Assembly (NCBI GenBank): GCA_012799185.1
Contig: JAAZLS010000021.1
Coordinates: 14,242-78,241 of the forward strand
Length of the DNA stretch: 64,000 nt
Direction: 5' to 3'
Origin: Bacillota bacterium
Lineage (GTDB): Bacteria > Bacillota > Dethiobacteria > DTU022
Below the pieces are notes generated by a model. The model was not told the origin of the DNA and did no database searches. It saw nothing but the letters and a program-made list of their open reading frames with translations. Shown here piece by piece: positions 40,574 to 61,555 of the stretch. The translations under genes and the position numbers were made by a program. Position 1 is the first letter of the stretch. Each line of letters begins with the position of its first letter.

Positions 40574-41380
40574 TCAGGTCAAGGGGATATCGCCTAGGTT
40601 TACATCCTTCTCCGTATCGATATTCTCAAATACCTTTTTCTTGCCATCGCTCTCTATTGTCAGGTTATAGGTGCCGGTCTCCTCTAGATCCTTGAACCAA
40701 AAATCACCGAACTCGTCGGTGGTGGCGGTAGCGGTTTTGCCGTTACCGGCCAGTGTACAGGTCGCCCCGATGATAACCTCTTTTTCCACCGGGTCGTAGA
40801 CTGTACCGGCAACAAAGCGCTTCATCCTGTTAAGGTAGTAAACCCTCGGCTTGTAGCCGCCTTCGGGGTGAACCACCTCCGCCCGGGCGATTTCGTCAGC
40901 AAACTCCGACTCCTCTCCAAATTTAATTGCCTCGGTAGGGCAGGCGTCAACACAGCGCGGTACCTCCCAACCGTCATCAAGCAAATGGGCACACCCGGTG
41001 CATTTCTGGGCGATATACAGGTTTTCATTGAAATAAATCGCCCGGTAGGGACAACGATCTACACACTCCCGGCAACCGGTACATTTTTCTGGGTCTATAA
41101 TGACTAGGCCGTCATCACGGCGATAGATGGCCCCCTCAATCGGACAGTACTCAATACAGGGTGCATTCTCACAGTGCATGCAGAGATAGGGCCGGTAATC
41201 TACCTTTACCTTGGGAACAGTGCCCCGGACCTCTTCCTGCATCTTGAGCCAGAACTGGCCGGTATCCGGCTGCGGCTTGGCATAAGGGGTCCAGTCGTTG
41301 CCTACATGCTCATCCTTGCAAACAAACTGGCAGGCATAACATCCATTGCATCGGGCCAGATCGATAACAAAAACTTTCAT
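40574..41380 (-). CDS. Fe-S (3x[4Fe-4S]) beta subunit of a DMSO-reductase-family molybdoenzyme, transhydroxylase (BthL)-like, with a C-terminal transthyretin/CarboxypepD_reg-like domain
   Basis: Cys clusters CNGCYACQFVC, CMHCENAPC and CTGCRECVDRC, and a C-terminal beta-sandwich tail (GATCTLAGNG...GDFWFKDL...YNLTIESDGK). Confidence 0.8.
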   Translation of the reverse strand: MKVFVIDLARCNGCYACQFVCKDEHVGNDWTPYAKPQPDTGQFWLKMQEEVRGTVPKVKVDYRPYLCMHCENAPCIEYCPIEGAIYRRDDGLVIIDPEKCTGCRECVDRCPYRAIYFNENLYIAQKCTGCAHLLDDGWEVPRCVDACPTEAIKFGEESEFADEIARAEVVHPEGGYKPRVYYLNRMKRFVAGTVYDPVEKEVIIGATCTLAGNGKTATATTDEFGDFWFKDLEETGTYNLTIESDGKKKVFENIDTEKDVNLGDIPLT

Positions 41381-44029
41381 CTATTCGTTCCCTCCTTCTA
41401 CCCAGCCGTTAAAGTGCAACCCGGCATCAGGACAGTATTTCCGCTCGAAGGCTGCGGGGTTCTCTTCACGCCAGCGAGCCCATTCCTTCGGCTCGATCTT
41501 CTGCACATCGACCAGGTAGCCGCTGGTAGCCTGGCCGGCTGCATTCTTGGAAGATACCCCCAGGGGGCTAATAGTATTGATCGCTCCACCGCGGCAAACA
41601 TCCTTGGCAATGGGGTCGTAACGGGCCCCGTGATCCACGTAGGCCACGCCGGGCATAACTCTTTCCCAGACCCGGGCCCCACAGAGGACAATCCCTCTCT
41701 CGTTTACTATCTTGACAATCTCCCCATCCTTGATCCCCCGTTTTTCCGCCTCCTGCGGATTAATCCAAACCGGCTCATATTTATAGCCATCGGGGCCGGT
41801 TACCTTACAGGTTGGCGTCTCCCGGGTCCAGGAGATATCATCAGCCTGAGAGTGTACGCGCCAGCGGCCGTGGTTGGACATTAACAAGAGTGGGAACATG
41901 GCCGCCCGATCGCTGGATAACCGCTCATCGTGGGTAATCCCTTTTTCAACCCACTTGGGAATAGGCGGCCTCTCGTGATCGTCGGGGAAATGTTTGGCCA
42001 ACCGCTCGGAGTAAATTTCCAGTTTCCCGGTCGGGGTAGGCAGGGGATTGTTTTCCGGATCCTCATAAAATTTACGTAGGCCCGGTGTATCCTCTTCCCA
42101 ATCCTCGGCGGTAGGAAATGCATAGTACTGCTTCTCCTTGAAATCTTCCCACGAAATAAAATTACCCAGGGCCATGCTATCGAAAACCTCTTTTTGTAGG
42201 TCCTCGATGCTTTTCTCTTCGCTAAATTCTTTTTCCTTACCAAGCTTTTTAGCTACCTCCAGAACCGCCTCGTAATCACTCTTCGACTCCCCCACCGGCT
42301 TAATAGCCTGATTCAGTAGGGTTACACTTTGGAAATGAACACCCTGCCGGGTATTGGTAACGATATCGTCTACCTCCATGTTGGTATTAACCGGTAAAAT
42401 TATATCGGCCAGCAGGCAATCGTTTTCCAACCATGGATGCTGAGCTACCACACATTCAATCGAAGGATGACGAAAAGCCTCCACCGTCTTATTACCATAA
42501 TTCCAACAGGTAATACGGCAAGGGGTATCGGTCCAAATCATATGGATCTCAGTACCGCCCTTTTCCTTCTCAATCGGATAGGTGTATTTGACAAACTGAT
42601 CCTCTGGCGGCGACTCGATTCCGCCGTCACCCCAGAAGACGATGGGCGGATTAAGTATAGCGTCTTGGATCAAGGTTTTCGGTATCAACTGTTTACCCCA
42701 GCCAAAAATAGTGGAGTCGCAAGGAACCCTTAACCTTTCACTCAACGCCGTGTTAAAGAAACGGGTATCTTGAACCCCTTTCGCTCGGGGCATCCCGATA
42801 TAGGAGATCTGCCACTGGTGCACCCCCGGGCCGCCCAGGCCCTGCATGGCCAGGAGGACACATTCCAGCCTTCCCGCTTCATGAGAGTAGGGACCCCTGA
42901 TGAAAGAACCGCCAAAGTAGTGGGCAATCGAGAAGGTTTTTTCTGCCAGGTACCGGGCAAAAGCCTTAATGGTCCAAGGCGGAACCCCACATTTTTCGGA
43001 AGCCCATTCCGGTGTCTTCGGAATATTATCTTCCTCCCCCATAACATAGGCGGCCAGCTTCTCAAGGCCCACCGTATGGGTCGCCACGTAATCCTTGTCG
43101 TAAAGTCCCTCTTTTAGCCAAATATAAATAATAGCTAGCTGGAGGGCCGCATCGGTGTTGGGCAGGACCGGGATCCATTTATCGGCATGAACCGCCGCTC
43201 CATAATTTACCTCGGGGCAGACATAAATCTGTTTAATACCCGCATCGCGCCAGAAATAGCAGATCCGAGAGGCATACTGACCGGTAAAACCCCAAACCGT
43301 GGTTTCCGGGTCACAGCCCCAGAAGAGGACTGCATCGCTATGCTCCGAAATATCCTTGAGCACATTATCTGCCGGTCGCATCATGCCCTGCGAGCCCTGG
43401 CCCCAAACATGTTTCGACCCCCAGTACCAGCCCTCCCAACTATCCGGGTTTCTCACCTGCTGGGTAAACCCGCCCATCATATCAAGAAGCCGGGCCTGGT
43501 GCCCATGGGGGGTGTGAATGGTTTTACATTCGCCATGGCCATCGCCCTGGGTAAGAATCGCCAGGGGGCCATACTTCTGATGAACCCTTTTTATTTCACT
43601 GGCAATTAAATCGGTAGCCTCATCCCAGGAGATCCGCACATACTTACTTTTACCCCTATTCTGGGGGTTACGCTCCCCCTCCGGATCCCAGTCCACCCGG
43701 CGAAGGGGGTATTTAATTCGGTTGGGCGAGTAGGTTCTTTTCTTGTAAGCCAGTGAAAATGGAGATGGTAATGCCTTAAAAAGCGGTTGTAAGGTCGCGC
43801 CGTTCCGCTCAATTTTCCAGGGGTTTAGCGCCTCCCGGTCATATTTCCAATCGTAATGGAACGGCCGAACTCGAAGAATTTTACCGTCTTTTACATCAAC
43901 TGCACATTCGCCTCCACCGCCCAGCAGGCCCCCTAATGCAAGGGACCTGATGACTGTTTTATCGCCGGCGGTATCTGGCCTGGCGGCAGTAGGCTTGTTG
44001 CCGCCCCGGTTTTTTTCCTCCAACATCAT
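41381..44029 (-). CDS. molybdopterin (bis-MGD) oxidoreductase alpha subunit, pyrogallol-phloroglucinol transhydroxylase (AthL)-like. It has no N-terminal Fe-S Cys motif and no Tat signal.
   Basis: 882-aa product with DMSO-reductase-family domain order. Translationally coupled to the beta subunit (stop/start overlap at 41380/41381). Confidence 0.8.
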   Translation of the reverse strand: MMLEEKNRGGNKPTAARPDTAGDKTVIRSLALGGLLGGGGECAVDVKDGKILRVRPFHYDWKYDREALNPWKIERNGATLQPLFKALPSPFSLAYKKRTYSPNRIKYPLRRVDWDPEGERNPQNRGKSKYVRISWDEATDLIASEIKRVHQKYGPLAILTQGDGHGECKTIHTPHGHQARLLDMMGGFTQQVRNPDSWEGWYWGSKHVWGQGSQGMMRPADNVLKDISEHSDAVLFWGCDPETTVWGFTGQYASRICYFWRDAGIKQIYVCPEVNYGAAVHADKWIPVLPNTDAALQLAIIYIWLKEGLYDKDYVATHTVGLEKLAAYVMGEEDNIPKTPEWASEKCGVPPWTIKAFARYLAEKTFSIAHYFGGSFIRGPYSHEAGRLECVLLAMQGLGGPGVHQWQISYIGMPRAKGVQDTRFFNTALSERLRVPCDSTIFGWGKQLIPKTLIQDAILNPPIVFWGDGGIESPPEDQFVKYTYPIEKEKGGTEIHMIWTDTPCRITCWNYGNKTVEAFRHPSIECVVAQHPWLENDCLLADIILPVNTNMEVDDIVTNTRQGVHFQSVTLLNQAIKPVGESKSDYEAVLEVAKKLGKEKEFSEEKSIEDLQKEVFDSMALGNFISWEDFKEKQYYAFPTAEDWEEDTPGLRKFYEDPENNPLPTPTGKLEIYSERLAKHFPDDHERPPIPKWVEKGITHDERLSSDRAAMFPLLLMSNHGRWRVHSQADDISWTRETPTCKVTGPDGYKYEPVWINPQEAEKRGIKDGEIVKIVNERGIVLCGARVWERVMPGVAYVDHGARYDPIAKDVCRGGAINTISPLGVSSKNAAGQATSGYLVDVQKIEPKEWARWREENPAAFERKYCPDAGLHFNGWVEGGNE

Positions 44030-44098: not shown

Positions 44099-44115
44099 AT
44101 GCAATTAACATGCCA
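44099..44115 (-). promoter_or_regulatory. sigma54 (-24/-12) promoter TGGCAT-gttaa-TTGCAT for the alpha1/beta1 operon
   Basis: Minus strand reads gaTGGCATgttaaTTGCATt, about 70 nt upstream of the 44029 start. Confidence 0.65.
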
Positions 44116-44332
44116 TCATTTCCCGGGGATAAAAGGTTGTCTGTTCAAGGCTAGGCCCCCCTTGAAATAATTTATCACCATCGATGGGGGCAACCATGTA
44201 AATATTAATTAACATTGTTCCACTTTGTTTAACTCAAGGTTTACCACCCGCGCCGGGTTCGATCATTTCACCGGAGAATAAACCCTACCGGGGACGCAGT
44301 GATTTTAATTATTTATGGTATAGTATTGAATA

Positions 44333-44998
44333 TTGGTAGTAAAAATACCTAACTCTAGCCGGGCGGTGATTAAAATGGATTTTATTGAAGTTTTAAAGGG
44401 AAGGCGTAGTATCAGGAGTTTTCTCCCCCAGGAAGTCCCGGAAGAAGATATCAGAGAGATTGTTGAACTGGCCACCCTGGCTCCCAGCGCAGGAAATAAA
44501 CAGGATTGGCAAACCATCGCCATCTTTAATCGGGAGATAAAACTCCAGATGAAAAAAGTAATCCAGGATAAACTGGCAACACTGGCGAAACAAGCGGGGG
44601 TTGAGAATCCTGAGGCGGTTAGCCGAAGGCGGATTAATATCTTATTTGCCGATGCCCCGGTAGCCCTGGTCATTTTGACTAAACCCTATCGCTCACTGCA
44701 GGATGAAATCCTGGTAAAATGCGGTTACACGGATCAGGAGGTCGAACGCCTGCGGATGCGACCGGAGCTGCAGACTATCGGCGGCTTCATTCAATCCCTT
44801 TTGCTAGCCGCCTACAGTTACGGCTACGGAACCTGCTGGATGGTCGCCCCCAATGTCGCCCGACCGGAGATGGAGCAGATCCTGGGCGTTAAGAAGCCCT
44901 GGTCAATCTCCGCCCTGGTAGCCCTGGGCCGTCCGGCAAAAGAACCGGGTCGCAAAATAGTGAAGCCGGTCTCCGAGGTTCTCAAAATAATAAATTAG
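44333..44998 (+). CDS. nitroreductase-family FMN oxidoreductase
   Basis: GRRSIRSF...PSAGNKQDW is the nitroreductase fold signature. Product is 221 aa. Confidence 0.8.
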   Translation: MVVKIPNSSRAVIKMDFIEVLKGRRSIRSFLPQEVPEEDIREIVELATLAPSAGNKQDWQTIAIFNREIKLQMKKVIQDKLATLAKQAGVENPEAVSRRRINILFADAPVALVILTKPYRSLQDEILVKCGYTDQEVERLRMRPELQTIGGFIQSLLLAAYSYGYGTCWMVAPNVARPEMEQILGVKKPWSISALVALGRPAKEPGRKIVKPVSEVLKIIN

Positions 44999-45026
44999 GG
45001 GTGCCCGGCGGCACCCCAGTTTTTTG
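44998..45026 (+). terminator. intrinsic terminator of the nitroreductase gene
   Basis: ggggtgcc cggc ggcacccc followed by agttttttg. Confidence 0.75.
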
Positions 45027-45061
45027 TTCGGAACTATTTACACCCTCCCCGGCGGCAACCC

Positions 45062-45859
45062 CTATTTTCCGGTTTCAAAGCGAAATTCCTGTTCTGGATC
45101 GATGAGCGCCAGAACGCGGACAATACAACCGTCCCCGCCTTCCCATCTCCAGGGGAAAGCCATGAAAAAGCATCGTTTTCCGGTAACCTTATCCAGGTCG
45201 CCCCCTACGTTTTCAATGCCGGGTATACCGCCTTTAACCATCAGGTTCTTGTGGGCATCTTCCCAAAGGGGGAAATCTACCTTTGGGTCACGGCCATATT
45301 CTTGCTTCCATTCCTCTATTAAATGGGGGTGAGTCGGGCCGAGGCCGTGATCTACCAGCTTGGTCGCCAGGGGGTGATCATTGGCCTGGCATCCATAACC
45401 CACTAATTTTATCTTTTTTTCGACCAACCAGTCAGCACCGGCACCATTAATACCACAACCATAGGCAAAATATTCATCGGTATCGGCCCATTTATGATGG
45501 AACCCGGTATTGATCATGACAATATCGCCTTCCTGAATTTTTGGCCGGGCATTTTCTAGATCTTCCGGGGTAATGATACCCCATTTTCCCTTGGGGATGG
45601 AGACAGCCACACCGGTCCCACATAACCGCCACAGGGGATAATCGCCAATACTGGGTGTATTTTCGGTTACGTGTAGCGGGGCATCCATATGGGTGGAGCG
45701 GTGCATGATCCCTTCCCAGTTTACCTCGTACAGGCCATCCTTGGCATGAAATTTCTTTACGGTAACATTGACACTGGGAGTAGAAGGCCATTCCGGCATA
45801 AATTGATGGTAGGGGTGACTTAGATTATATATTTGCAGGCTCATGTCTTCTCCTTTCAA
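45062..45859 (-). CDS. cyclase-family protein (PF04199, kynurenine-formamidase / isatin-hydrolase-like metal hydrolase)
   Basis: HRSTHMDAPLH matches the HxGTHxDxPxH signature. Product is 265 aa. Confidence 0.8.
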   Translation of the reverse strand: MKGEDMSLQIYNLSHPYHQFMPEWPSTPSVNVTVKKFHAKDGLYEVNWEGIMHRSTHMDAPLHVTENTPSIGDYPLWRLCGTGVAVSIPKGKWGIITPEDLENARPKIQEGDIVMINTGFHHKWADTDEYFAYGCGINGAGADWLVEKKIKLVGYGCQANDHPLATKLVDHGLGPTHPHLIEEWKQEYGRDPKVDFPLWEDAHKNLMVKGGIPGIENVGGDLDKVTGKRCFFMAFPWRWEGGDGCIVRVLALIDPEQEFRFETGK

Positions 45860-45868: not shown

Positions 45869-46672
45869 TTATTTACCCGGATCGATCCGGTAGCTACCGG
45901 CCGGATCGATAATCGCTACGAACCGTACCGGACAGGCGTCACCATTTCTAAATTTCCAGGGGGCGGCAACAAAGGTGGCTCTCTTCCCTAGTAAAAGATC
46001 GATATCCCCGCCTACCTGTTCAATCGTAGGGATACCGGCCTCGAGAAGGGTTTTATGGGCGATATTCCATTCGCCATGCTCTTTTTTAGGATCCAGGCCC
46101 GTAGCCTCCCGGTATTCGTCGGCCAACCTTTTCATGGTCGGCCCCCCCCGGTGGGGCCCCAGGGAGGTTGCCAGCGGATGATCAACCTGCTGGGTATCGA
46201 CCGCCACTAGCTTACACTTCCTTTCAACCAGCCACCGGGCCGCATCCCCGGTCAGACCGGGGGATTCGCCATAATACTCCAGTGAATCGGAGTACTTATG
46301 GTGCCACCCGGTAACGATAACTACAATATCTCCCGGCTGGACCGTTGCTTCATTTGCCTCCAAGTCCCCGGCAGTCACCGTTTCGTAGCTTCCCTTGGGA
46401 ATGCTAAGAACAATACCGTTACCAAAAAAACGATCCTCCGGGATTTCAGCTAGGTCCGCACCCTTTTGAACCAGGTGCAGGGGGGCATTCATATGAGTGC
46501 CCGTATGCATAGATGTATTTGTTTTCCAGGCTAAAACGCCATGTTGGGCATGTTTTACGGCCCTAAACATTTTCACATCATCCTGCCCAGGATAGGATGG
46601 TACACCATGACCCCAGGTATGACTGAGCTCCAAAAACTGTAAACCCGAATAGGGGTCGTTCACAAATGACAC
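45869..46672 (-). CDS. cyclase-family protein (PF04199), paralog of the preceding gene
   Basis: HTGTHMNAPLH motif, 267 aa, with an 8-nt gap to its paralog. Confidence 0.8.
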   Translation of the reverse strand: MSFVNDPYSGLQFLELSHTWGHGVPSYPGQDDVKMFRAVKHAQHGVLAWKTNTSMHTGTHMNAPLHLVQKGADLAEIPEDRFFGNGIVLSIPKGSYETVTAGDLEANEATVQPGDIVVIVTGWHHKYSDSLEYYGESPGLTGDAARWLVERKCKLVAVDTQQVDHPLATSLGPHRGGPTMKRLADEYREATGLDPKKEHGEWNIAHKTLLEAGIPTIEQVGGDIDLLLGKRATFVAAPWKFRNGDACPVRFVAIIDPAGSYRIDPGK

Positions 46673-46795: not shown

Positions 46796-46812
46796 ATGCA
46801 ACATTTATGCCA
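46796..46812 (-). promoter_or_regulatory. sigma54 promoter TGGCAT-aaatg-TTGCAT for the tandem cyclase operon
   Basis: Minus strand reads gTGGCATaaatgTTGCATa, about 125 nt upstream of the 46672 start. Confidence 0.65.
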
Positions 46813-46911: not shown

Positions 46912-47766
46912 TTATACGGGGTCCAACATAACCTCACCCACGTTAATGCTCTTATGGGTAAATAGTTCCAGTTGGCGGGGCTGATATCCCTCATGCTCAA
47001 CAGTGAGAATATAACGGGTCTTCTTGCCAAGCCCCTCAAATTCAAAATCACCGTAGATATCGGAGCGGGTCTCCATGCTCACCCCGTTGCCGGCAAGGGA
47101 TACCTTTACCCCCGCGGCACATTCCCCCTGGTTATCTTTAAATACCACCTCGCCGGCAATAAAGTATCGCGGGATCCCCGCATACTTAATTAGAGGTTCG
47201 GTCCCAAACTCCGGATAGAGTACCTCGGATTTGGTTTCGGCCACCAGCCGGGAGACCTCACTGTCAGGATCATCCAGATCCCCAAACACCAGGGCGCCGG
47301 TAGGACAGGCCTCGACACATTTCGGCTCTTTTTCTCCCTGGTCCAACATATGGGCACAGAGGGTACACTTCTGAGGTAGCTGCTTCTCTTCGTTCCAGAA
47401 TATAACCCGGTAGGGGCAGCTGTTTACAATCTGCCTTTGACCCCGGGCCTTTACCGGATCGATAATCACAATCCCGTCCTCCCGCCGGTAAACTGCACCC
47501 TCCTTGGCCATCTCGATACAGGGTGCCTCCTGGCAGTGCATACAGGGCAGCGGGATATAATCAAGCTTGGGCTTGGGATACTCTCCCCGTTCTATTTGCT
47601 TGATCTGCATCCAGTAGTGGTCCTTTAAGGGATGACCCTCAGAATAGGGGGGATAATCATTATCATAAAATTCATCCCGGCAGGCTAAAAAGCAATTATA
47701 ACAGCCGGTGCACTTGTTAACATCGATAAAAATCGTATAACGCGCTATTTTAATCACTCCTCCCAC
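46912..47766 (-). CDS. Fe-S beta subunit, transhydroxylase small-subunit (BthL)-like, with C-terminal transthyretin-like domain (paralog 2)
   Basis: CTGCYNCFLAC, CMHCQEAPC and CTLCAHMLD ferredoxin clusters, plus a C-terminal GECAAGVKVSLAGNG...GDFEFEGL...YILTVEHEGY tail. Confidence 0.85.
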   Translation of the reverse strand: MGGVIKIARYTIFIDVNKCTGCYNCFLACRDEFYDNDYPPYSEGHPLKDHYWMQIKQIERGEYPKPKLDYIPLPCMHCQEAPCIEMAKEGAVYRREDGIVIIDPVKARGQRQIVNSCPYRVIFWNEEKQLPQKCTLCAHMLDQGEKEPKCVEACPTGALVFGDLDDPDSEVSRLVAETKSEVLYPEFGTEPLIKYAGIPRYFIAGEVVFKDNQGECAAGVKVSLAGNGVSMETRSDIYGDFEFEGLGKKTRYILTVEHEGYQPRQLELFTHKSINVGEVMLDPV

Positions 47767-50443: not shown

Positions 50444-50460
50444 ATGCAAATTTTATGCCA
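50444..50460 (-). promoter_or_regulatory. sigma54 promoter TGGCAT-aaaat-TTGCAT for the alpha2/beta2 operon
   Basis: Minus strand reads gTGGCATaaaatTTGCATc, about 150 nt upstream of the 50294 start. Confidence 0.65.
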
Positions 50461-50673
50461 CCTCCCACCGGAATAAATTTAACCCGCCCCTGTTTTTTTT
50501 TAAACGACTTCCAAGTTTCTTAAAACCCGGGCCCAGCCCCCGCTACTTTTCTACCCCTTAGATATTTAACATTGCGTTAATATTTTGACACATAGAAAAG
50601 CATCGACACACTAAAACCGGCTCGGAAGTCCAGGGCATGCAACAATTCGGAATTCTAGCCCCCCTGTAAATAT

Positions 50674-52744: not shown

Positions 52745-52777
52745 AGCTAAAGATAAAATATAAAATATAAAATATAA

Positions 52778-52802
52778 GCCGGTGCAAAACCCTTGCACCG
52801 GC
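52778..52802. terminator. bidirectional terminator (gccggtgcaa aaccc ttgcaccggc) preceded by an (aaatata)x3 simple repeat
   Basis: 10-bp perfect stem lying between the convergent dctM and SDR genes. Confidence 0.7.
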
Positions 52803-52821
52803 TCATATTATCTACCAAAAA

Positions 52822-53595
52822 TTACCCGATAGCGGTCAGGCCTCCATCTACGTAGATAATTTGGCCGGTCACAAAATCGGAGGCCGCCGAGGCCAGGAAG
52901 ATAGCCGCACCAACCATATCTTCGGCTTTCCCCAGGCGGCCCAAGGGAATATTCCTCAGGTATTTTTCGGTTCGCCCCGGTTCTTTCATCTGCTTCTCTG
53001 TTAACTTGGTAGCTATTAAAGCCGGGCCGATCGCATTAACATTTACATTAAATGGTGCCCACTCCGCCGCCAGACAGCGAGTAATCATATCTACCGCCCC
53101 CTTGGTGCTGCAATAGGCACTATTCCCGCCGGCATTGGCCCGAATTCCCCGGACCGATGATAGGTTGATAACCTTACCCGAGCGCCTTTTAGTCATTATC
53201 CGGCCAAATTGTTTACAGCTGATCATTGTTCCCATGGAGTTAACATTATGTAACAGCTGCCAATCCTCCATTGATAGGTCAAGACCCTTTGCCTTCTTAT
53301 TGGCCCCATGGGCATTAACTAAAATATCTACCGTTCCGTACCGGGCAACGATTTCACCAACCAGCCGGATTACATCCTCCTCATCGGTTATATCCACCCC
53401 CATGGCTGTCGCCTCCCCACCGGTCTCCCTACCTATCGCCGCTGCCCGCAGTTTCAAGTTTTCAATATTTCTACTGGCCATGACCAGCCGGGCACCGTGC
53501 TCCACGAAACCGGTAGCGATCGCCCCCCCGATACCGCCGGCACCGCCGATTACCACCGCCACCTTACCACTTAAATCAAATCTTTTTTTCATCAA
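52822..53595 (-). CDS. SDR-family NAD(P)-dependent oxidoreductase (candidate phloroglucinol reductase)
   Basis: GGAGGIGGAIA Rossmann motif and YCSTK (YxxxK) catalytic motif. Product is 257 aa. Confidence 0.85.
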   Translation of the reverse strand: MMKKRFDLSGKVAVVIGGAGGIGGAIATGFVEHGARLVMASRNIENLKLRAAAIGRETGGEATAMGVDITDEEDVIRLVGEIVARYGTVDILVNAHGANKKAKGLDLSMEDWQLLHNVNSMGTMISCKQFGRIMTKRRSGKVINLSSVRGIRANAGGNSAYCSTKGAVDMITRCLAAEWAPFNVNVNAIGPALIATKLTEKQMKEPGRTEKYLRNIPLGRLGKAEDMVGAAIFLASAASDFVTGQIIYVDGGLTAIG

Positions 53596-53627: not shown

Positions 53628-53960
53628 TTAAGGCTCTACTATAATCACCAGGACCGTTGCCGGGTTAACACCCCGAACTTTAATCGCCCGCTCTTCACCG
53701 GGAGCAATATAGAGTAGATCCCCCTCTTCCAAGAGGTGCTCCTCTTCTGGTCCGGCTACCGTCAACGCCCCGGAGAGAAGGTAGTAGACCCGCTCCTTAG
53801 CAGAGCTCGACATTTCGGCTCCACCGTTTGGCAGGAAATGGGATATCGATACCGTCAGGCGGCTGGCCGCGGTTTCCCGATCTACCTTTTTTAGACCCCA
53901 CATATGGAAATGCCGTTTGGCCTCGTAGGGTGTACCCTTATTGGCCTTAACTGTTTTCAT
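53628..53960 (-). CDS. cupin-domain protein
   Basis: 110-aa product with a cupin beta-barrel pattern (HMWGLKK...YYLLSGALTV...LLYIAPGEERAIK). Confidence 0.7.
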   Translation of the reverse strand: MKTVKANKGTPYEAKRHFHMWGLKKVDRETAASRLTVSISHFLPNGGAEMSSSAKERVYYLLSGALTVAGPEEEHLLEEGDLLYIAPGEERAIKVRGVNPATVLVIIVEP

Positions 53961-54001: not shown

Positions 54002-54018
54002 TTGCAAGCACCGTGCCA
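54002..54018 (-). promoter_or_regulatory. sigma54 promoter TGGCAC-ggtgc-TTGCAA for the cupin-SDR operon
   Basis: Minus strand reads gTGGCACggtgcTTGCAAt, a canonical match about 45 nt upstream of the 53960 start. Confidence 0.7.
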
Positions 54019-54064: not shown

Positions 54065-55351
54065 TCAGGTCACCCGGTCCCGGGAACCCGGAACGTTACC
54101 GTTATCCTTTATTTGGGAAACAATGATAGCGTTAACAACTAACAGAGCCATGATCAAGATTAGTATAAATTCGTAACGGCCCCAATAATCGTACGTGACC
54201 CCGCCTAAGTAGGAACTGGCGGCGGCCCCCAGATGATGGCATACCGTAACCAGGCCAAATACTATCCCTACCGATTCCTTGGTAAACATTTGGGTACATA
54301 AAGATCCCGTTGGGGCAATAGTAGCCATCTCTGTTATGCCGAAGGAGAGGGCAAAGATAAACAACAGAACCGGTGAGCGGGCATAGAGCAGAAGGATAAA
54401 AGTTAAACTCCTAAAACCATAGAGCAGGCGAAGTAGTTTCCCCCGATCAATCTGGTCAGCCAGGTAACCGGCCCCAACGGTTCCCAAGAGGCTACTTGCC
54501 GATAACAGGGTAAAAACAAGGGCAATCGTGTACGGTGTAAAGCCCCTCCCCTCGGCAAAGGGGATAAAGTGGGTCCCGGTAAAACCTATATCGGTAAAAC
54601 CACAAATAAAATAGGAGATTGATAACAACCAGAATACCCGGTTTCTGAAAATAACGCCCAGGGAGATCGGAACTTTTTCCTTCTGCACCCCGGCCCCGGC
54701 GGGAGTCTCTCCATCGCCATAGGGCGCCAGGTTAATATCGGCCGGTTTTGATCTGATAAATAAGGCCAGCAGGGGAGTTAAACCAAAGGTGACAATTTGC
54801 CCTAAAAGCAGCACCGCATAACGCCATCCATGGGCTTCAACGAGAAAAATGGTAGCCGGCACTAGAATTAAGGTCCCCACTGCCTGGCCCGAGGCAATTA
54901 TGCCCAGTACAAATCCCCTTTTTTTCGCAAACCAATGGGTAACCAGGGAGGCAGCCACCACGCTCGAACATCCGGCCGAGCCGCTAGGAAAAAACACCCC
55001 TAGTAAAATGATCAACTGCCAAAACCCGGTAACGGCAGAGGAAACCATTAATGAGGCCCCGATTAAAAGGGAGCCCAGGGCGAATATAATCCGTCCCCCG
55101 TATTGATCGGCAAGCTTTCCGGCCAGCGGTTGGGCAACCGCAAAAGTAATCCAACCCAGCAGGGGAATGGCGGCCGCAGCGGTACGGCTGATTAAAAATT
55201 CATTTTCCCAAGAAATAAAATAGGCCCCTAGAGCACCCCGTAGACCAAAATTTATAAGAGCTACAAATAACAAACCCACTAGAACCCAGCCGTAATGGAA
55301 CGGGAATTTATAAGAAAATAGTCTATCCCTCACCCGATATAGCCACCCCAC
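54065..55351 (-). CDS. MFS transporter
   Basis: 428-aa product with 12 TM segments. Confidence 0.8.
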   Translation of the reverse strand: MGWLYRVRDRLFSYKFPFHYGWVLVGLLFVALINFGLRGALGAYFISWENEFLISRTAAAAIPLLGWITFAVAQPLAGKLADQYGGRIIFALGSLLIGASLMVSSAVTGFWQLIILLGVFFPSGSAGCSSVVAASLVTHWFAKKRGFVLGIIASGQAVGTLILVPATIFLVEAHGWRYAVLLLGQIVTFGLTPLLALFIRSKPADINLAPYGDGETPAGAGVQKEKVPISLGVIFRNRVFWLLSISYFICGFTDIGFTGTHFIPFAEGRGFTPYTIALVFTLLSASSLLGTVGAGYLADQIDRGKLLRLLYGFRSLTFILLLYARSPVLLFIFALSFGITEMATIAPTGSLCTQMFTKESVGIVFGLVTVCHHLGAAASSYLGGVTYDYWGRYEFILILIMALLVVNAIIVSQIKDNGNVPGSRDRVT

Positions 55352-55404: not shown

Positions 55405-55421
55405 ATGCAATTGCTATGCCA
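55405..55421 (-). promoter_or_regulatory. sigma54 promoter TGGCAT-agcaa-TTGCAT for the MFS gene
   Basis: Minus strand reads aTGGCATagcaaTTGCATg, about 55 nt upstream of the 55351 start. Confidence 0.65.
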
Positions 55422-55688
55422 TTCGTAACGTACCAGCCGGATCCCTGTAAAAGAGTATATTTACAAACAGTTTACACCATGTCAAGCTATTAACACACTC
55501 TTGGCCCAATAGGGAAGAGTCAAACAATCAAAGCCGGGCTAATAGCCAGACACCCGTGACCCGATATGATCTAATTTTGAGCATCGCCGGTTAATATTGA
55601 TAGCGATTCAAGCAAGATCCTGGGGCAACCCCTGGCCTCCCGTAGACCTTAAGACCGGGGGTAAATTACCCCCACCACTGCCCCTCAA

Positions 55689-55705
55689 TGGCATGGATAT
55701 TGCAT
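55689..55705 (+). promoter_or_regulatory. sigma54 promoter TGGCAT-ggata-TTGCAT for dctP
   Basis: Plus strand reads aaTGGCATggataTTGCATt, about 150 nt upstream of the 55857 start. Confidence 0.65.
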
Positions 55706-55856: not shown

Positions 55857-56951
55857 ATGAAGCGATCCCTTTTTTTAACACTGCTTGTGGTGACATTAGT
55901 CGTGTTAATGTCGGTCGTTGGCTGTACCCCCACCGTAGAGAACGGAGAGGAAAACGGAGACGCTGAACCGGTAGAGAAGATAACATTAAAATGGGTCGAC
56001 GAACATGCCACCACGGCCTGGGAGGCTAAAATGGCGGCCATCCCATTTCTACAGGAGATTGAAGATGTCACCGACGGCAGGGTCGAAGTTGATCCCTACT
56101 GGGCTAATACCCTCCTAGAGACCGTGGATATCTGGCCCGGCATCGCCGCCGGCACGGCTGATTTCGGCTGGTGTTTCATGGGTGTATACGGCGGAATGAC
56201 CACCCTGGCTGATGTGGTCACATTACCGTTCATGCCTTTCGAAAGTGCGGAACATGGCAGTGCAGTGCTCTGGACCCTTCTGAATGAGTTCCCGAACTTA
56301 GCAGAACAATTTGGTGAAAACCACATTCTCCTGACCTGGACCTCCGACCCCTATATTTTGGCAACCACCAAGAAACAGGTTAAAACCATGGAAGACATCA
56401 AGGGCCTGAAGATCAGAGCCATGGGCGGACCCCCCACCGAGATGGCCGAGTTGCTGGGGGCTGTTCCCCAAAGTATGCCCATGCCCGATACCTATACGAA
56501 CCTACAGACGGGTGTCCTAGACGGCATATTTACCCCCTGGGAAGCAATTATTAGCTGGCGGCATCACGAGGTTTGCCCTTATGTTACCACGATCCCCGCC
56601 CATAGCGTTTACTTTACCATTCCATTCAACCATGACAAGTGGAACAGCCTGCCCGATGATATTCGGGAGGCGCTGGAATCGGTAGGCGGAATGAAAGGCT
56701 CCCGGTTCTGGGGCAAACAGAAGTTTGATAGTGCCAGGCCGGAGGTGCTCCGGATGTGTGAGGAAGAGGGAATCGAGATTGAATTCTACGATCCCACCCC
56801 CGAAGAACTACTCCAGTGGAGAGAGGCAGCCGGCTTGCCCCTTTGGGACAAGTGGGTTGCCGACAGAGAGGCCGATGGATACGATGAGGCCCAGGAGATA
56901 TTGGATCGATGCCTAGAGCTGGCCGAGGCCGGACTGGCCGGGATGGAATAG
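55857..56951 (+). CDS. dctP: TRAP transporter substrate-binding lipoprotein (DctP family)
   Basis: Lipoprotein signal LMSVVGC and a 364-aa DctP fold. Confidence 0.85.
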   Translation: MKRSLFLTLLVVTLVVLMSVVGCTPTVENGEENGDAEPVEKITLKWVDEHATTAWEAKMAAIPFLQEIEDVTDGRVEVDPYWANTLLETVDIWPGIAAGTADFGWCFMGVYGGMTTLADVVTLPFMPFESAEHGSAVLWTLLNEFPNLAEQFGENHILLTWTSDPYILATTKKQVKTMEDIKGLKIRAMGGPPTEMAELLGAVPQSMPMPDTYTNLQTGVLDGIFTPWEAIISWRHHEVCPYVTTIPAHSVYFTIPFNHDKWNSLPDDIREALESVGGMKGSRFWGKQKFDSARPEVLRMCEEEGIEIEFYDPTPEELLQWREAAGLPLWDKWVADREADGYDEAQEILDRCLELAEAGLAGME

Positions 56952-57145: not shown

Positions 57146-58369
57146 ATGGATAAATTGAGATTTAAAGCCCGGCTGGTTTTATGGAGCGCTGTCGCCCTCA
57201 ATATCCTAATCGGCATACTCTACATCTGGAGCATTATAAGCAAGGCTTTGATCAACGACTTAGGCTGGACAAGCAAGCAGGCCTCCCTGCCCTATACCCT
57301 GGTAACCATCTCTTTTACCTCTTTCATGGTCGTATTTGGTCGAATCCAGGATATTAAAGGGCCTCGTATGCCGGCAACCCTTTCCGGTATTCTACTGGGG
57401 GGGGGTCTAATCCTTTGTTGTTATTTCCTGACCCCGGTGGGATTACTAATCGCCTTCGGAATAATTACCGGTGCCGGGATCGGTATTGCCTATGTTTCAA
57501 CGGCCCCGGCAGCTGTAAAATGGTTTCCCCCAGAGAAAAAGGGCATGATTACCGGGACCGTTGTCGCCGGTATCGGTATTTCGGCCATAGTCTATGCCCC
57601 CATCGCCGAGGTGTTAATCCGAAACGTGGGGATCGAAAAAACCTTTTTGTATCTGGGTATTGGCGCCCTAGTGTTAATGGTTCTCTTTGCCCAGGCCATG
57701 AACAATCCCCCCCCCGGCTATATCCCTGAAAGCACAATCGCTAACAGAGAGAAAAAAAGGGCCGCTCCCGCTACCTTTGCCCGGGACGTGGAATGGAGGG
57801 AGATGTTTAAAGATATCAGCTTTTACAAACTATGGATCATGTATGCTTTTTCAACCGCGGCCGGGCTAATGATTATCGCCCATGCGGCCAAGATCGCCGA
57901 GGTGCAAATCGGCTGGGAGGGCGGTGTCTATTTAGTAATTCTACTGGCAGTTTTCAATGCGGCTGGCCGGTTCCTGGGCGGCGCTATCTCCGATAAAATC
58001 GGGCGATTGAACCTAATGCGTATCGCATTTATGTTGCAGGCTATAAATATGCTGGTCTTCTCTTTCTATTTTAATATTCCCCTGCTTGCAATCGGGATGT
58101 CTGTCGCCGGTCTCTGTTACGGGGCCTGCTTTTCGGTCTTCCCCCCGACAGTGATCGATATGTACGGGATCAAGAATTATGGCACCAATTATGGCCTAAT
58201 CATGATGGGATGGGGAATCGGCGGTGGAATAATCGGCCCGATGATGGCAGCGGCAATTTTTGATGCTTACAAGTCGTATACCATGGCCTATTTTGTTGCC
58301 TGTGCCCTGCTGATAGCAGTTTTTATCCTTACCTTTACCTTTAAGGGGACCGCCCTTGTCCGCAAATAG
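57146..58369 (+). CDS. MFS transporter (oxalate/formate-antiporter-like subfamily)
   Basis: 407-aa product with 12 TM segments. No sigma54 motif lies upstream. Confidence 0.8.
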   Translation: MDKLRFKARLVLWSAVALNILIGILYIWSIISKALINDLGWTSKQASLPYTLVTISFTSFMVVFGRIQDIKGPRMPATLSGILLGGGLILCCYFLTPVGLLIAFGIITGAGIGIAYVSTAPAAVKWFPPEKKGMITGTVVAGIGISAIVYAPIAEVLIRNVGIEKTFLYLGIGALVLMVLFAQAMNNPPPGYIPESTIANREKKRAAPATFARDVEWREMFKDISFYKLWIMYAFSTAAGLMIIAHAAKIAEVQIGWEGGVYLVILLAVFNAAGRFLGGAISDKIGRLNLMRIAFMLQAINMLVFSFYFNIPLLAIGMSVAGLCYGACFSVFPPTVIDMYGIKNYGTNYGLIMMGWGIGGGIIGPMMAAAIFDAYKSYTMAYFVACALLIAVFILTFTFKGTALVRK

Positions 58370-58439
58370 GGGTTGCGGTTGAAAGTTTAGTTTAAAATGA
58401 TATAATAATTGTCAACCAATTCTATACTGCTCCGAACCT

Positions 58440-58608
58440 TGCCACCTAACGCCGCGTCTTATGGGCCATGGTTCAAGGTCTGGGCCGGGGGAGAAATCCC
58501 CCTGCCTCCCGCATTTGGAAAGGAGGACGCCAGTGAAACCGCGTTTTCTTAAACATGGAGGCGCGGTTGTTTTTTTGGCCCCAAAATCTAAGAAAGAAGG
58601 GATAAGAA
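58440..58608 (+). promoter_or_regulatory. structured leader with intrinsic terminator (58537-58577) upstream of moaA; candidate Moco riboswitch
   Basis: GC-rich leader gggccgggggagaaatccccctgcctcccgcatttggaaaggaggacgcc, followed by aaccgcg...cgcggtt plus gttttttttg, directly before the moaA GTG start. The class assignment comes from context (upstream of moaA), not from a verified consensus match. Confidence 0.4.
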
Positions 58609-59598
58609 GTGGAGCTAATCGATTCCCAGGGACGGGTTCACGATTACTTGCGCATCTCGGTAACCGATCGTTGCAATTTGCGCTGTCTGTACTGCATGGG
58701 GCCGGAAGGGATAACCCAAATCCCCCACCAGGAGATCCTTTCTTACGAGGAGATAATCCAGGTCATAAAAACGGCGACGCCCCTGGGCATCCGGCGAATC
58801 CGCATTACCGGGGGGGAACCGTTAACCCGCAAGGGATTGCCTCGCCTGCTGGAACAGATATCCGAGATTCCCGCAATTAAAGACCTCTCCATGACTACCA
58901 ACGGCATACTGCTCCCACGCTATGCCGCAAGCCTGAAGGCGGCCGGCCTAAAACGGGTCAATATTAGCCTGGACTCCTTAAAACCGGAAAAATACCGGGC
59001 AATTACCCGTAAGGGCGACCTCTCCCAGGCCTTACGCGGGATCGATACCGCCCTGGAGCTGGGCCTAACCCCTGTTAAGATAAACACTGTCCTGATCAAA
59101 GGATTCAATGATGATGAGGTGCCGGAGCTCATAAAACTGGTCCAGGAAAAACCGGTGCACCTGCGCTTCATCGAATATATGCCTATTGGAGACCATGATC
59201 ACAACTACAGCCAACACTATCTACCCCTAAGTTTTGTGCAGGAGGCGGCCCGGGCCGCCGGACTGCCCCTCACTCCCACCGCCCCCCGGACGGGAGCCGG
59301 CCCGGCGGAATGGTTTACTATCCCCGGGGGACAGGGCACAGTCGGGCTAATTCACCCTATTAGCCGGCATTATTGCCACCACTGTAATCGCCTCCGCCTG
59401 ACTCCCGATGGTTATATCAAGACCTGCCTCTACTGGGAGCATGAGTACCCGGTTCGCCCCTGTATTAATGACCCGGAGGCGCTAACCCGGTTACTACTAA
59501 CCGCGGTTAAGGAGAAACCGGCACGCCACCTGATGCAACAAGAGACCGGCGCCAAGACCCCCCGGGCCCGGCGCTCCATGTCTAAAACCGGAGGATAA
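58609..59598 (+). CDS. moaA: GTP 3',8-cyclase MoaA
   Basis: ISVTDRCNLRCLYCMG radical-SAM motif and C-terminal Cys motif (CHHCNRLRLTPDGYIKTC). Confidence 0.9.
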   Translation: MELIDSQGRVHDYLRISVTDRCNLRCLYCMGPEGITQIPHQEILSYEEIIQVIKTATPLGIRRIRITGGEPLTRKGLPRLLEQISEIPAIKDLSMTTNGILLPRYAASLKAAGLKRVNISLDSLKPEKYRAITRKGDLSQALRGIDTALELGLTPVKINTVLIKGFNDDEVPELIKLVQEKPVHLRFIEYMPIGDHDHNYSQHYLPLSFVQEAARAAGLPLTPTAPRTGAGPAEWFTIPGGQGTVGLIHPISRHYCHHCNRLRLTPDGYIKTCLYWEHEYPVRPCINDPEALTRLLLTAVKEKPARHLMQQETGAKTPRARRSMSKTGG

Positions 59599-59640
59599 CC
59601 GGGGGTAAACTATTGGTACCAACAAGAAGGGAGAGCAGTA

Positions 59641-60621
59641 ATGCCGCCTGTTTTAATCAATATCGTTGCCGCCTGTTCGAACAGCGGAAAAACCACCCTC
59701 ATCGAAGGATTAATCCCGGAGCTGATCGCCCGGGGATTACGGGTGGCCGCCTTAAAGGGTAACATCCACCACTATACCCTGGATCTTCCCGGCAAAGATA
59801 CCTGGCGTTTTACCCGGGCCGGGGCGGAGGCGGCCGGCATGATCTCCGATGATCGCTATATTTTAACCGGGCCGGCCCCCGGTAAAAGTGGCCTGGGGAT
59901 AGTCCGCTCCTTCCTTAAAGAGCTGGACCTGATTCTAATTGAGGGAGATAAGCAGTCGACCAACCCGAAAATTGAGGTGATCCGGGGTGCACTGCAAAAC
60001 AGGCCCGTCTCTACACAAAATCTAATTGCGGTAGTCACCGACCTACCGGATTTAACCATAGAAGTACCCCGGTTCGACCTGGACGATTACCCGGGACTGG
60101 CCACATTCTTGATGGAACAGCTATTACAGCAATCTCCTCCCCGGAGAGAACTGACCCATTTTGATCCTTCGGGGAGGCCGCGGATGGTCGATGTCTCAGC
60201 TAAGCCGGAGACTACCCGGGAGGCCTACGCCCGGGGAGAGATTATCATGGCCCCGTCAACGCTGCAGCGGATCAAGGAGGGTTCCCTGGCCAAGGGGGAT
60301 GTGCTGGGGGTAGCCCAGGTAGCGGCCATCATGGCCATTAAAGAGACCGGTCGCCTGATCCCCATGGCCCATCCCCTGCCGATCGCGGGAGCGGAGGTGG
60401 AATTTAACCTCCAACCGGAGCACAACCGGGTTGAAATAGGGGTGAAGGTCCGAGTAACCGGCCAGACCGGGGTAGAGATGGAGGCGTTAACCGGGGTCAG
60501 CGTCGCCGCATTAACCATCTACGATATGTGCAAAGCCATTGACAAAGAGATGACTATTCAAAATATCCGGCTGATAGAAAAGAGAGGAGGGCGTTCTGGC
60601 CACTGGCGCCGGGAGCCGTAA
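59641..60621 (+). CDS. fusion of MobB (molybdopterin-guanine dinucleotide biosynthesis adapter, N-terminal) and MoaC (cyclic pyranopterin monophosphate synthase, C-terminal)
   Basis: N-terminal P-loop AACSNSGKTTL (MobB). C-terminal MVDVSAKPETTREA...GDVLGVAQVAAIMA (MoaC). Confidence 0.8.
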   Translation: MPPVLINIVAACSNSGKTTLIEGLIPELIARGLRVAALKGNIHHYTLDLPGKDTWRFTRAGAEAAGMISDDRYILTGPAPGKSGLGIVRSFLKELDLILIEGDKQSTNPKIEVIRGALQNRPVSTQNLIAVVTDLPDLTIEVPRFDLDDYPGLATFLMEQLLQQSPPRRELTHFDPSGRPRMVDVSAKPETTREAYARGEIIMAPSTLQRIKEGSLAKGDVLGVAQVAAIMAIKETGRLIPMAHPLPIAGAEVEFNLQPEHNRVEIGVKVRVTGQTGVEMEALTGVSVAALTIYDMCKAIDKEMTIQNIRLIEKRGGRSGHWRREP

Positions 60622-60631
60622 TCGATAATCG

Positions 60632-61555
60632 ATGGGAAAGATAGTTGCAATCTGTACCGGTCCCCGCAAGGGGGAACGTAAAACCGATATCGGCCGGGCC
60701 CGGCTAATTAAAGAACAGGGCCTGGAAGGGGATGCCCACGCCGGCTCCGCCCACCGCCAGGTCAGCCTGCTGGCCCTGGAAAGCATAGAGAAGATGCAAC
60801 GGTTGGGGTTAGAGGTCGGCCCTGGCGATTTTGCTGAAAACCTGACTACCAGGGCGATCAATCTGGTATCGCTGCCGGTAGGAACCCGGCTCGCCGTTGG
60901 AGAGGGGGCAGTACTGCGCATAACCCAGATAGGAAAGGAATGTCATCAACGTTGCACCATCTACCACCAGGCTGGCGACTGTGTCATGCCCCGGGAGGGG
61001 GTTTTTGCCGAAGTCCTGCGGGGTGGAACCGTCGCCACCGGGGACCCAATTTCCACCAGGCCCTCCTACAACTTTGCCGTCATCACCGCCAGCGACCGGG
61101 GAGCTGCGGGAGACCGGGAGGATCAAAGCGGCCCGGCAGCCTCCGCCGCCTTAAAACCCTGGGGAGATGTAACCGCACACCAAATTGTACCCGACGAATT
61201 GGAACAGCTGGCGGCCGCCCTTCGAAGGCTCGCCGACAGCAATAAGATCGATGCCATCTTTACCACCGGTGGAACCGGCCTCTCTCCCCGCGATGTAACC
61301 CCGGAGGCCACCCGGCGGGTAGTAGAGCGCCTGGTGCCGGGAATCCCGGAGGCACTACGCCGGGAGAGCGCTAAAATTACCCCCATGGCGATGCTCTCCC
61401 GGGGAGTAGCAGGGATACGGGGCAAGACCCTAATAATCAACCTGCCGGGAAGCCCCGGGGCAGTAAAGGAATACCTGCAAATTTTAGCCCCGGCCCTGGA
61501 TCACGCCCTGGAGGTCTTGACCGGCCGGGCCCGGGAATGTGCCCGCGGCGATTAA
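60632..61555 (+). CDS. fusion of a MOSC domain (N-terminal) and MogA/MoaB-type molybdopterin-binding domain (C-terminal)
   Basis: N-terminal ~150 aa are MOSC/YiiM-like with a conserved Cys. The C-terminus, AVITASDR...IFTTGGTG, is the MogA/MoaB signature. Confidence 0.7.
   Translation: MGKIVAICTGPRKGERKTDIGRARLIKEQGLEGDAHAGSAHRQVSLLALESIEKMQRLGLEVGPGDFAENLTTRAINLVSLPVGTRLAVGEGAVLRITQIGKECHQRCTIYHQAGDCVMPREGVFAEVLRGGTVATGDPISTRPSYNFAVITASDRGAAGDREDQSGPAASAALKPWGDVTAHQIVPDELEQLAAALRRLADSNKIDAIFTTGGTGLSPRDVTPEATRRVVERLVPGIPEALRRESAKITPMAMLSRGVAGIRGKTLIINLPGSPGAVKEYLQILAPALDHALEVLTGRARECARGD

Follow-up and report, generated by a model that had tools for sequence, protein, structure and literature searches.

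Within a 64,000-nucleotide stretch of DNA from an uncultured Firmicute (GenBank assembly GCA_012799185.1, contig JAAZLS010000021.1, positions 14,242 to 78,241; here termed the window), an island of about 21 kb at window positions 40574–61555 probably encodes the upper part of an anaerobic route that degrades plant-derived trihydroxybenzenes through phloroglucinol; its seven sigma54 promoters would drive expression under an activator encoded elsewhere. Contigs matching the island come from biogas-fermenter metagenomes. The gene map is based on open reading frame (ORF) calls and on Pfam and NCBIfam scans of the window ORFs, and the closest solved relatives were found by PDB searches scored in bits. 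From the homologies, residue patterns, promoters and gene neighbourhoods computed in this way, we infer all substrates and reactions.

In the proposed scheme, a phenolic substrate would be imported via tripartite ATP-independent periplasmic (TRAP) and/or major facilitator superfamily (MFS) carriers, and the molybdoenzyme alpha2/beta2 would convert pyrogallol to phloroglucinol by hydroxyl transfer. A short-chain dehydrogenase/reductase (SDR) would then use NADPH to reduce phloroglucinol to dihydrophloroglucinol, whose ring would be opened to 3-hydroxy-5-oxohexanoate by CycA and CycB acting as a two-subunit dihydrophloroglucinol cyclohydrolase. Later steps, whether by TfD and TAL or by a CoA-dependent thiolytic route, would be encoded outside the window. 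A second molybdoenzyme, alpha1/beta1, would probably feed another phenol (hydroxyhydroquinone, hydroxybenzoate) into the route or make a tetrahydroxybenzene co-substrate. The molybdenum cofactor (Moco) would be supplied by a moa operon under its own Moco riboswitch, and the seven sigma54 units would be controlled by an activator whose gene lies in another part of the genome.

The initial annotation of this DNA had proposed the order transhydroxylase, SDR reductase and cyclohydrolase, and homology and conserved neighbourhoods support that logic for the upper part of the route. Most of its gene inventory is likewise borne out: Pfam and PDB matches identify two AthL/BthL-like molybdoenzyme pairs, cycA and cycB are both cyclase-family hydrolases (PF04199), Pfam scans recover the SDR with its cupin, the TRAP system and two MFS transporters, and Moco biosynthesis genes lie directly downstream (58609–61555).

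Predicted transhydroxylase, reductase and cyclohydrolase

The large subunit alpha2 (47754–50294, minus strand) has as its top PDB match AthL, the large subunit of Pelobacter acidigallici's pyrogallol-phloroglucinol transhydroxylase, and aligns with it over its full length (4V4C_A; 917 bits, 49% identity). The alignment places in alpha2 the AthL residues H144, H145, D174, S175, W176, Y404, F468 and Y560, with R153 replaced by Lys and W354 by Glu. Ser175, Asp174 and His144 are shared by both alpha subunits and almost all of the roughly 105 homologues aligned, and the ten closest alpha2-type sequences have Tyr404 in every case and Tyr560 in nine. We take S175 to be the Mo ligand and the Tyr404 and Tyr560 loops to lie at the substrate and co-substrate site of AthL; what these AthL residues do in catalysis was reportedly described by Messerschmidt and colleagues in 2004. 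The small subunit, beta2 (46912–47766, minus strand), matches BthL with 215 bits, lacks the same four cysteines as BthL, leaving 12 that suffice for three 4Fe-4S clusters, and carries the C-terminal immunoglobulin (Ig)-like domain (CarboxypepD_reg) found in BthL.

AthL/BthL (4V4C/4V4D/4V4E) and alpha2/beta2 thus have in common the Mo-ligand serine with its neighbouring Asp and His, both tyrosine loops, a cytoplasmic alpha subunit without the FS0 cluster motif, and a beta subunit that lacks the same four cysteines and bears the Ig-like domain. The Pfam domain PF21423 ('AhtL-like_1st') is present in both alpha1 and alpha2, and AthL, rather than acetylene hydratase or a member of another DMSO-reductase subfamily, is the best solved-structure match of both; alpha1 is the more distant of the two (34% identity, 417 bits). 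By these comparisons, alpha2/beta2 look like the true counterpart of AthL/BthL. The true start of alpha2 is likely the ATG at 50276, giving about 840 aa, in keeping with homologues of 838–840 aa. A database search returned 5,693 relatives of alpha2 at E ≤ 1e-100, the top ones 72–80% identical and from Desulfobacter, Actinobacteria and Acidobacteria; among the listed matches of alpha1 and alpha2, names are generic or 'TMAO reductase' only.

The SDR gene (52822–53595, minus strand) lies directly beside a small cupin gene (53628–53960, minus strand) and encodes a candidate NADPH-dependent phloroglucinol reductase (PGR). Its product matches adh_short_C2 with 202 bits, and its translation contains YxxxK (AYCSTK) and an upstream Ser, the classical Ser-Tyr-Lys set. 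The PDB entry 5G4K/5G4L (134.6 bits to the SDR) may be the crystallised phloroglucinol reductase and is not counted as evidence here. Judged by eye, an S-R-N sequence (MASRN) follows the second beta strand, and a TR(S/N) motif is described as selecting NADPH in phloroglucinol reductases (PMC10470551). The same study has TAL and TfD acting after dihydrophloroglucinol cyclohydrolase (DPGC); TAL belongs to the BKACE family and TfD to the 3HCDH family. SDR homologues cluster with DPGC-, TfD- or TAL-like genes at 60–73% identity in four loci (L084–L087), at 54% in a fifth (L088) and at 42% in a sixth (L053). Related clusters likewise keep the cupin immediately next to the SDR; along its full length, it matches an NCBIfam model for a mycobacterial cupin, but below the threshold.

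Ring opening is assigned to cycB (45062–45859) and cycA (45869–46672), both on the minus strand and 43% identical to one another. Both products are related over their full length to the DPGC of Clostridium scatologenes (CsDPGC), whose sequence was rebuilt from the supplement of PMC10470551 with minor gaps from optical character recognition: cycA at 30% identity (E 2e-36) and cycB at 32% (E 2e-44). The comparison with dihydrophloroglucinol cyclohydrolase suggested in the initial annotation therefore finds a relationship for both, and the best PDB matches are generic cyclases at only about 1e-10 and 1e-6, respectively. In cycB and all its orthologues, the canonical metal motif (H-x3-H-x-D) and a downstream His and Glu are conserved. 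The motif of cycA is HxxxHxN, with Asn in place of Asp, as in seven of seven aligned orthologues. The CsDPGC substrate-contact positions Trp20/Tyr22 are Trp/Ser in cycB and Tyr (Trp in some orthologues)/Gly in cycA, and both proteins lack an insertion of about 30–45 residues present in CsDPGC.

The two cyclase genes appear to travel together. They are adjacent in eight other loci (L030, L036, L041, L049, L053, L067, L086 and L088), and in seven loci from Firmicutes, Desulfobulbaceae-type deltaproteobacteria and other Proteobacteria, the Asn-type and Asp-type motifs stay separate. A search of 1.84 billion representatives yielded 71 cyclase relatives at E ≤ 1e-30, the best of which (P0361) is a predicted polypeptide of 524 aa consisting of an Asn-type, cycA-like half followed by an Asp-type, cycB-like half; Asn replaces Asp in that first half and also in the representatives P0362 and P0363. 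The strict adjacency of the genes, the motif specific to each subfamily and the naturally fused form together point to an enzyme of two subunits. Outside the Clostridium type, the ring-opening hydrolase may thus be an obligate heteromer of a catalytic (Asp) and a modified (Asn) subunit. The available part of the study by Zhou et al. makes no mention of the cyclase pair (PMC10470551).

Clusters in other genomes join the same genes, and the comparison of gene co-occurrence proposed in the initial annotation found the module across at least three phyla. Three Firmicute loci are the nearest by SDR identity. In PH28_bin88 (L084; SDR 73%), the order is a PrpR_N-PAS-Sigma54_activat regulator, DctM, DctP, DctQ, cupin, BKACE, SDR, a molybdoenzyme, an AhtL-like alpha and beta pair, a further molybdoenzyme and a thiolase. 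Moorella sulfitireducens (L085; 66%) has an AhtL-like pair, TRAP genes, cupin, 3HCDH, BKACE, SDR, a second AhtL-like pair, acyl-CoA dehydrogenase, thiolase and CoA-transferase. A metagenome-assembled genome (MAG) of Desulfitobacteriia (L086; 63%) carries the cyclase pair (85% and 84% identical to cycA and cycB), cupin, 3HCDH, SDR, an AhtL-like pair, BKACE and thiolase. A shorter set of BKACE, SDR, thiolase and 3HCDH occurs in L087 (60%), and L053 holds alpha1, beta1, a LuxR gene, cycA, cycB, cupin, SDR and 3HCDH.

The fullest parallel is a 22-kb locus of Desulfobacter sp. (CP054837.1; L088), with 12 orthologues of island genes at 38–83% identity. It begins with moaA, cycA (75%), cycB (83%), a GntR gene, beta1 (64%) and alpha1 (66%), and continues with alpha2 (78%), beta2 (62%), cupin (50%), SDR (54%), CoA-ligase, enoyl-CoA hydratase, thiolase and dctPQM. 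After the SDR, at 14599–19309 of that locus, lie ADP-forming acyl-CoA synthetase-type genes, an enoyl-CoA hydratase, an OB-fold protein and a thiolase, with no TfD or TAL; the gene set suggests a CoA-dependent downstream branch, and such a branch is said to have been proposed long ago for Pelobacter acidigallici. In an Actinobacteria MAG (JAAYJE01; L089), alpha1-beta1 is divergent from alpha2-beta2 and is accompanied by IclR, BKACE and thiolase genes. Unlike the island, L085, L086, L088 and L089 are compact operons and carry downstream CoA-dependent or TfD/TAL genes; a GntR gene is present in L088 and IclR genes in L089. The Firmicute loci L084–L086 differ from the island in lacking alpha1/beta1 and in having instead an extra enzyme with a Molybdop_Fe4S4 domain.

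That extra molybdoenzyme, roughly 746 aa long and with an Fe4S4 domain at its N-terminus, occurs at 10796–13376 and 16839–19073 of L084, at 16577–19156 of L085 and at 10822–13397 of L086. The window has no such enzyme, and identity to alpha1 and alpha2 is only 23–25%. A ferredoxin-like gene (about 110 aa) comes next in three of these four cases.

It was only in 2023 that the phloroglucinol-route enzymes became known, from a Clostridium, and the C. scatologenes cluster encodes PGR, DPGC, TfD and TAL (Zhou et al. 2023, PMC10470551). Because the pathway logic was already known, the reading given here for the island is an extension and not a surprise. The island shares with that cluster an SDR gene beside genes for DPGC-related cyclase-family hydrolases, and its close relatives share 3HCDH (TfD-like), BKACE (TAL-like), thiolase and CoA-transferase genes as well. 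It differs in its two-gene cyclohydrolase, the cupin beside the SDR, the transhydroxylase genes within the cluster, sigma54 regulation and the lack of TfD and TAL in the window.

Several observations weigh against a phloroglucinol pathway here. Identities of 49% to AthL and of 30–32% to DPGC do not fix substrate specificity, and resorcinol hydroxylase is likewise an AthL relative. The best PDB and NCBIfam matches of the SDR are generic gluconate/glucose dehydrogenase-type SDRs, and cycA departs from the cyclase metal motif. Pfam scans of the ORFs in the 64-kb window found no 3HCDH, BKACE, thiolase or CoA-transferase genes, no TfD or TAL and no gallate decarboxylase. With TfD, TAL, thiolase and the activator missing, the pathway cannot be closed within the window; contigs that reach about 5 kb past the island (about 3 kb beyond the window end) also hold no activator, TfD or TAL. 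Carboxylates are the usual cargo of TRAP systems, which counts on the same side given that no gallate decarboxylase was found. The role of alpha1/beta1, moreover, is a guess, because the beta subunit is its sole conserved neighbour in 80 loci.

The likeliest alternative, and one that we nevertheless consider unlikely, is that the SDR, cupin and CycAB act on another reduced ring, such as dihydro-hydroxyhydroquinone, that the molybdoenzymes interconvert other polyphenols, and that phloroglucinol is not central. A reductive hydroxyhydroquinone route has reportedly been found in Desulfovibrio inopinatus. The cyclases differ from single-gene DPGC in being an apparently obligate pair, in the change of Asp to Asn, in the missing insertion and in their low identity; the SDR, with its generic best matches, has no demonstrated closeness to a characterised PGR; and the cyclase pair co-occurs with the noncanonical alpha1 clade in Desulfobulbaceae-type loci. 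On the other side, the SDR, cupin and cyclases adjoin BKACE and 3HCDH genes, of the families of TAL and TfD, whose substrates triacetate and 3-hydroxy-5-oxohexanoate are products of the phloroglucinol route, and alpha2 keeps the AthL residues checked. Furthermore, Zhou et al. already count as DPGC, within phloroglucinol clusters, cyclases from Desulfopila aestuarii and 'Clostridiales bacterium PH28_bin88' that are about 260 aa long (PMC10470551, data sets S3, S4).

Sigma54 promoters of the island

A further line of evidence for the proposed reading comes from the promoters. A search of the whole 64 kb for TGGCAC-N5-TTGCW with at most one mismatch found seven sigma54-type sites, compared with 1.28 expected, and none of 100 shuffles reached seven. 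All seven have the form TGGCAY-N5-TTGCA and fall between 44100 and 55704, that is, inside the island. Every site is intergenic, faces its downstream gene and lies 43–254 bp before the start codon; the spacing of the -24 GG and -12 GC is canonical, and the sites are co-oriented with the operons.

On the minus strand, the elements stand upstream of alpha1-beta1 (44100–44115; TGGCATGTTAATTGCA), cycA-cycB (46797–46812), alpha2-beta2 (50445–50460), cupin-SDR (54003–54018; TGGCACGGTGCTTGCA, the exact consensus) and the MFS transporter gene MFS1 (55406–55421). The two on the plus strand precede dctQM (50674–50689), divergent from the alpha2 promoter, and dctP (55689–55704). Two pairs of sites are divergent, so that the seven occupy five upstream regions. 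The initial annotation held that every catabolic and transport unit has such a promoter; this is true of seven units, whereas the same pattern found no site before the nitroreductase gene, the second MFS gene (MFS2) or the moa operon. MFS2 may be transcribed by read-through from dctP.

The transport genes served by these promoters include a complete TRAP set, split over two divergent units. DctQ (50943–51446, plus strand; PF04290) and DctM (51443–52744, plus strand; PF06808) are the membrane subunits, and DctP (55857–56951, plus strand; PF03480) is a solute-binding lipoprotein with a lipobox-like N-terminus in its translation. MFS1 (54065–55351, minus strand) and MFS2 (57146–58369, plus strand) were identified by Pfam scan. 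In an independent assembly from ENA (L081), the genes between dctQ and the moa operon, at about 50.6–62.8 kb, stand in the same order, and at least this part is therefore not an assembly artefact. Strong bidirectional terminator-like hairpins lie between convergent genes at 44998–45017 (nitroreductase/cycB) and 52771–52809 (dctM/SDR), and these fit a split into separate transcription units.

None of the ORFs in the 64-kb window encodes a sigma54 activator (Sigma54_activat), and tblastn with the activator from L084 gave no match. Enumeration of k-mers with one mismatch across the five promoter regions found no shared upstream activator motif above shuffled controls, and nothing beyond weak or AT-rich matches emerged when those of L084 and L085 were included. 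Words resembling GTTAATA/TATTAAC, such as TGTTAATTAATATTTACA and TTAACATTGCGTTAATATT, are present in three of the five upstream regions (44116–44332, 50461–50673 and 55422–55688); they could be activator or integration host factor sites, although they are not significant against shuffles. Among the loci compared, seven sigma54 sites are found in this window alone. L084 and L085 have one each, before a TRAP-led cluster, and the same pattern found none in L086, L088 or L089.

The divergent alpha1/beta1 pair

The second alpha subunit, alpha1 (41381–44029, minus strand), belongs to the AthL family and has 4V4C as its top PDB match. It is 35% identical to alpha2, about as distant from it as from AthL. 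It retains H144, D174, S175 and W176 of AthL, is changed at R153, W354 and F468, and is deleted at the Y404 and Y560 loops; in the 85 closest aligned sequences of its clade, both tyrosine positions likewise fall within deletions. Its partner, beta1 (40574–41380, minus strand; Pfam Fer4_11 and CarboxypepD_reg), has BthL of 4V4C as its top PDB match (198 bits) and shares the C-terminal Ig-like domain. With 16 cysteines, beta1 has four complete 4Fe-4S motifs, a pattern kept in about 58 orthologues. The pair is thus set apart from AthL/BthL by its 34% identity, the deletions at the tyrosine sites and the 16 cysteines of beta1.

This clade is large and widely distributed. At E ≤ 1e-50, alpha1 has 4,596 relatives among database proteins, the top ones 70–78% identical and from MAGs of Dehalococcoidia, Thermoleophilia and Desulfobacterales; the clade as a whole numbers thousands of members at 55–78% identity in these groups and in Firmicutes. 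When all ORFs within 6 kb were clustered in 80 alpha1-centred loci, the beta subunit was the sole general neighbour. An alpha2-type gene (at least 59% identity) was present in nine loci, the cyclase pair in six and TRAP genes in 10–15. No other conserved partner of alpha1/beta1 emerged: TRAP, Usp, MFS, GntR, thiolase and Moco genes each occurred in about 12% of the 80 loci or fewer. In a Peptococcaceae MAG (L065, about 1621–7700), alpha1-type (57%) and beta1-type (64%) genes are followed by an MFS gene whose product is 62% identical to MFS2. Because of that gene order, MFS2 may belong with alpha1/beta1 rather than with the phloroglucinol core.

The initial annotation had described two transhydroxylases. 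While alpha2/beta2 fit that description, alpha1/beta1 form a separate clade that fails two features of AthL, the tyrosine loops and the three-cluster beta subunit, and a second transhydroxylase is therefore not established. The four-cluster beta1 and the missing tyrosine loops make it probable that the pair performs a different reaction and argue against a simple transhydroxylase function for the clade. Most likely, alpha1/beta1 catalyse a different hydroxylation, dehydroxylation or hydroxyl transfer. They may represent a redox-active, four-cluster relative of the transhydroxylase with an undescribed polyphenol reaction, for example a net hydroxylation, a reductive dehydroxylation or the isomerisation of hydroxyhydroquinone, but any one specific role is doubtful. 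That alpha1/beta1 and the Asn/Asp cyclase heteromer are both unrecognised enzyme types is a fair conjecture that falls somewhat short of probable.

Hug et al. 2013 reported two 'transhydroxylase' operons per Chloroflexi genome (PMC3971608). If the activity of alpha1/beta1 does differ, the metagenomic annotation 'pyrogallol hydroxytransferase' would need splitting, since current counts would mis-assign such genes.

A further alternative, slightly less probable than the use of another reduced ring, would make the island an oxidative resorcinol or alpha-resorcylate pathway in which one or both pairs are water-dependent hydroxylases like RehLS/DbhLS of Aromatoleum and Thauera, under sigma54 control. 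Such control of an AthL-family pathway is documented in Aromatoleum (Azoarcus) anaerobium, whose 25-kb resorcinol cluster includes RehLS, is transcribed from three sigma54 promoters and encodes its own activators, RedR1 and RedR2 (PMC10084136). Like the island, A. anaerobium thus combines an AthL-family molybdoenzyme pathway for an anaerobic polyphenol with several sigma54 promoters. In addition, the four-cluster cysteine set of beta1 would suit net electron transfer, and a carboxylated compound, 3,5-dihydroxybenzoate for instance, would be a fitting substrate for TRAP transporters. However, A. anaerobium is a nitrate reducer that uses an oxidative route, in which hydroxyhydroquinone dehydrogenase acts before hydroxybenzoquinone cleavage, and Pfam scans of the window ORFs found neither a hydroxyhydroquinone dehydrogenase nor hydroxybenzoquinone-cleaving (pyruvate-dehydrogenase-like) genes. 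Whereas its cluster contains recognisable upstream activator sites and the activators themselves, neither was found with the seven promoters of the island. Moreover, the neighbours of the molybdoenzyme genes, in the island as in related loci, are genes of the reductive phloroglucinol route, and no membrane anchor or cytochrome partner lies next to alpha1/beta1.

It is very improbable that both alpha/beta pairs represent S-oxide or N-oxide reductases of the ordinary kind, clustered with the cyclases and SDR by coincidence: BisC, DmsA and TorA are the best NCBIfam models and many homologues are so labelled in databases (JGI 'TMAO reductase'), but the models match far below their cut-offs, the alphas score 917 and 417 bits to AthL compared with 281 and 249 bits to TMAO/DMSO reductases, both have the AhtL-like first domain and no Tat signal or FS0 cysteine motif (by inspection), the betas have the BthL-type Ig-like domain, and synteny with phloroglucinol-route genes is kept across at least three phyla.

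The initial annotation had also regarded the gene combination and its sigma54 control as undescribed as a unit. No description of the joined transhydroxylase-PGR-paired-cyclase-cupin module was found, nor any of the split between three-cluster AthL and four-cluster alpha1 types or of the Asn/Asp cyclase pair, in a literature search that most subscription-journal papers lay outside. The gene combination itself recurs across phyla, and sigma54 control of an AthL-family pathway was already known.

Anaerobic breakdown of phenols derived from tannins and flavonoids is relevant to how carbon turns over in peat, sediments, guts and digesters. The island and its relatives would represent a different form of the route, spread across phyla, in which the transhydroxylase genes are physically linked to those for reducing and opening the ring. 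They offer experimental handles in the second AthL-like clade, which is widespread in sediment Dehalococcoidia, in the predicted two-subunit cyclohydrolase and in the conserved cupin.

Moco operon, nitroreductase and flanking genes

The Moco operon (58609–61555, plus strand) encodes MoaA, a MobB-MoaC fusion and a MOSC-MoaB fusion, as judged by Pfam scan. It is preceded on the same strand by a near-consensus sigma70-like promoter with a TG extension (58379–58406; TTGAAA-16-TATAAT) and by a full-length match to the Moco riboswitch model RF01055 (58418–58541; 62.7 bits against a gathering threshold of 36). The 3ʹ end of the riboswitch lies 68 nt upstream of moaA and is overlapped by a terminator-like hairpin (58537–58568, plus strand). 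With their own sigma70-like promoter and riboswitch, the Moco genes are regulated apart from the sigma54 units. An ORF at 58461–58880 overlaps the riboswitch and is probably spurious.

A nitroreductase-family flavoprotein gene (44333–44998, plus strand; Pfam scan) is the only one of its kind in the island, where two had been counted. Its sole paralogue, 26% identical, lies 25 kb away at 18383–18919, outside the island, and is probably the origin of that count. Lacking a sigma54 site and not being kept with the module in other genomes, the island copy is probably accessory or unrelated. It was considered as a redox partner of alpha1/beta1 and rejected, with one weak match in the 80 related loci.

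Immediately upstream of the island (37865–40288), a radical SAM protein (37865–38869) is followed by a fusion of LigB/MEMO-like and AMMECR1 domains (38930–40288), a trio of domains that resembles the 'AmmeMemoRadiSam' system; no evidence was found of a link between these domains and the island. The remainder of the window consists of spore-former housekeeping genes, among them hrcA-grpE-dnaK-dnaJ, spoIIP, glmS, glmM and cdaA.

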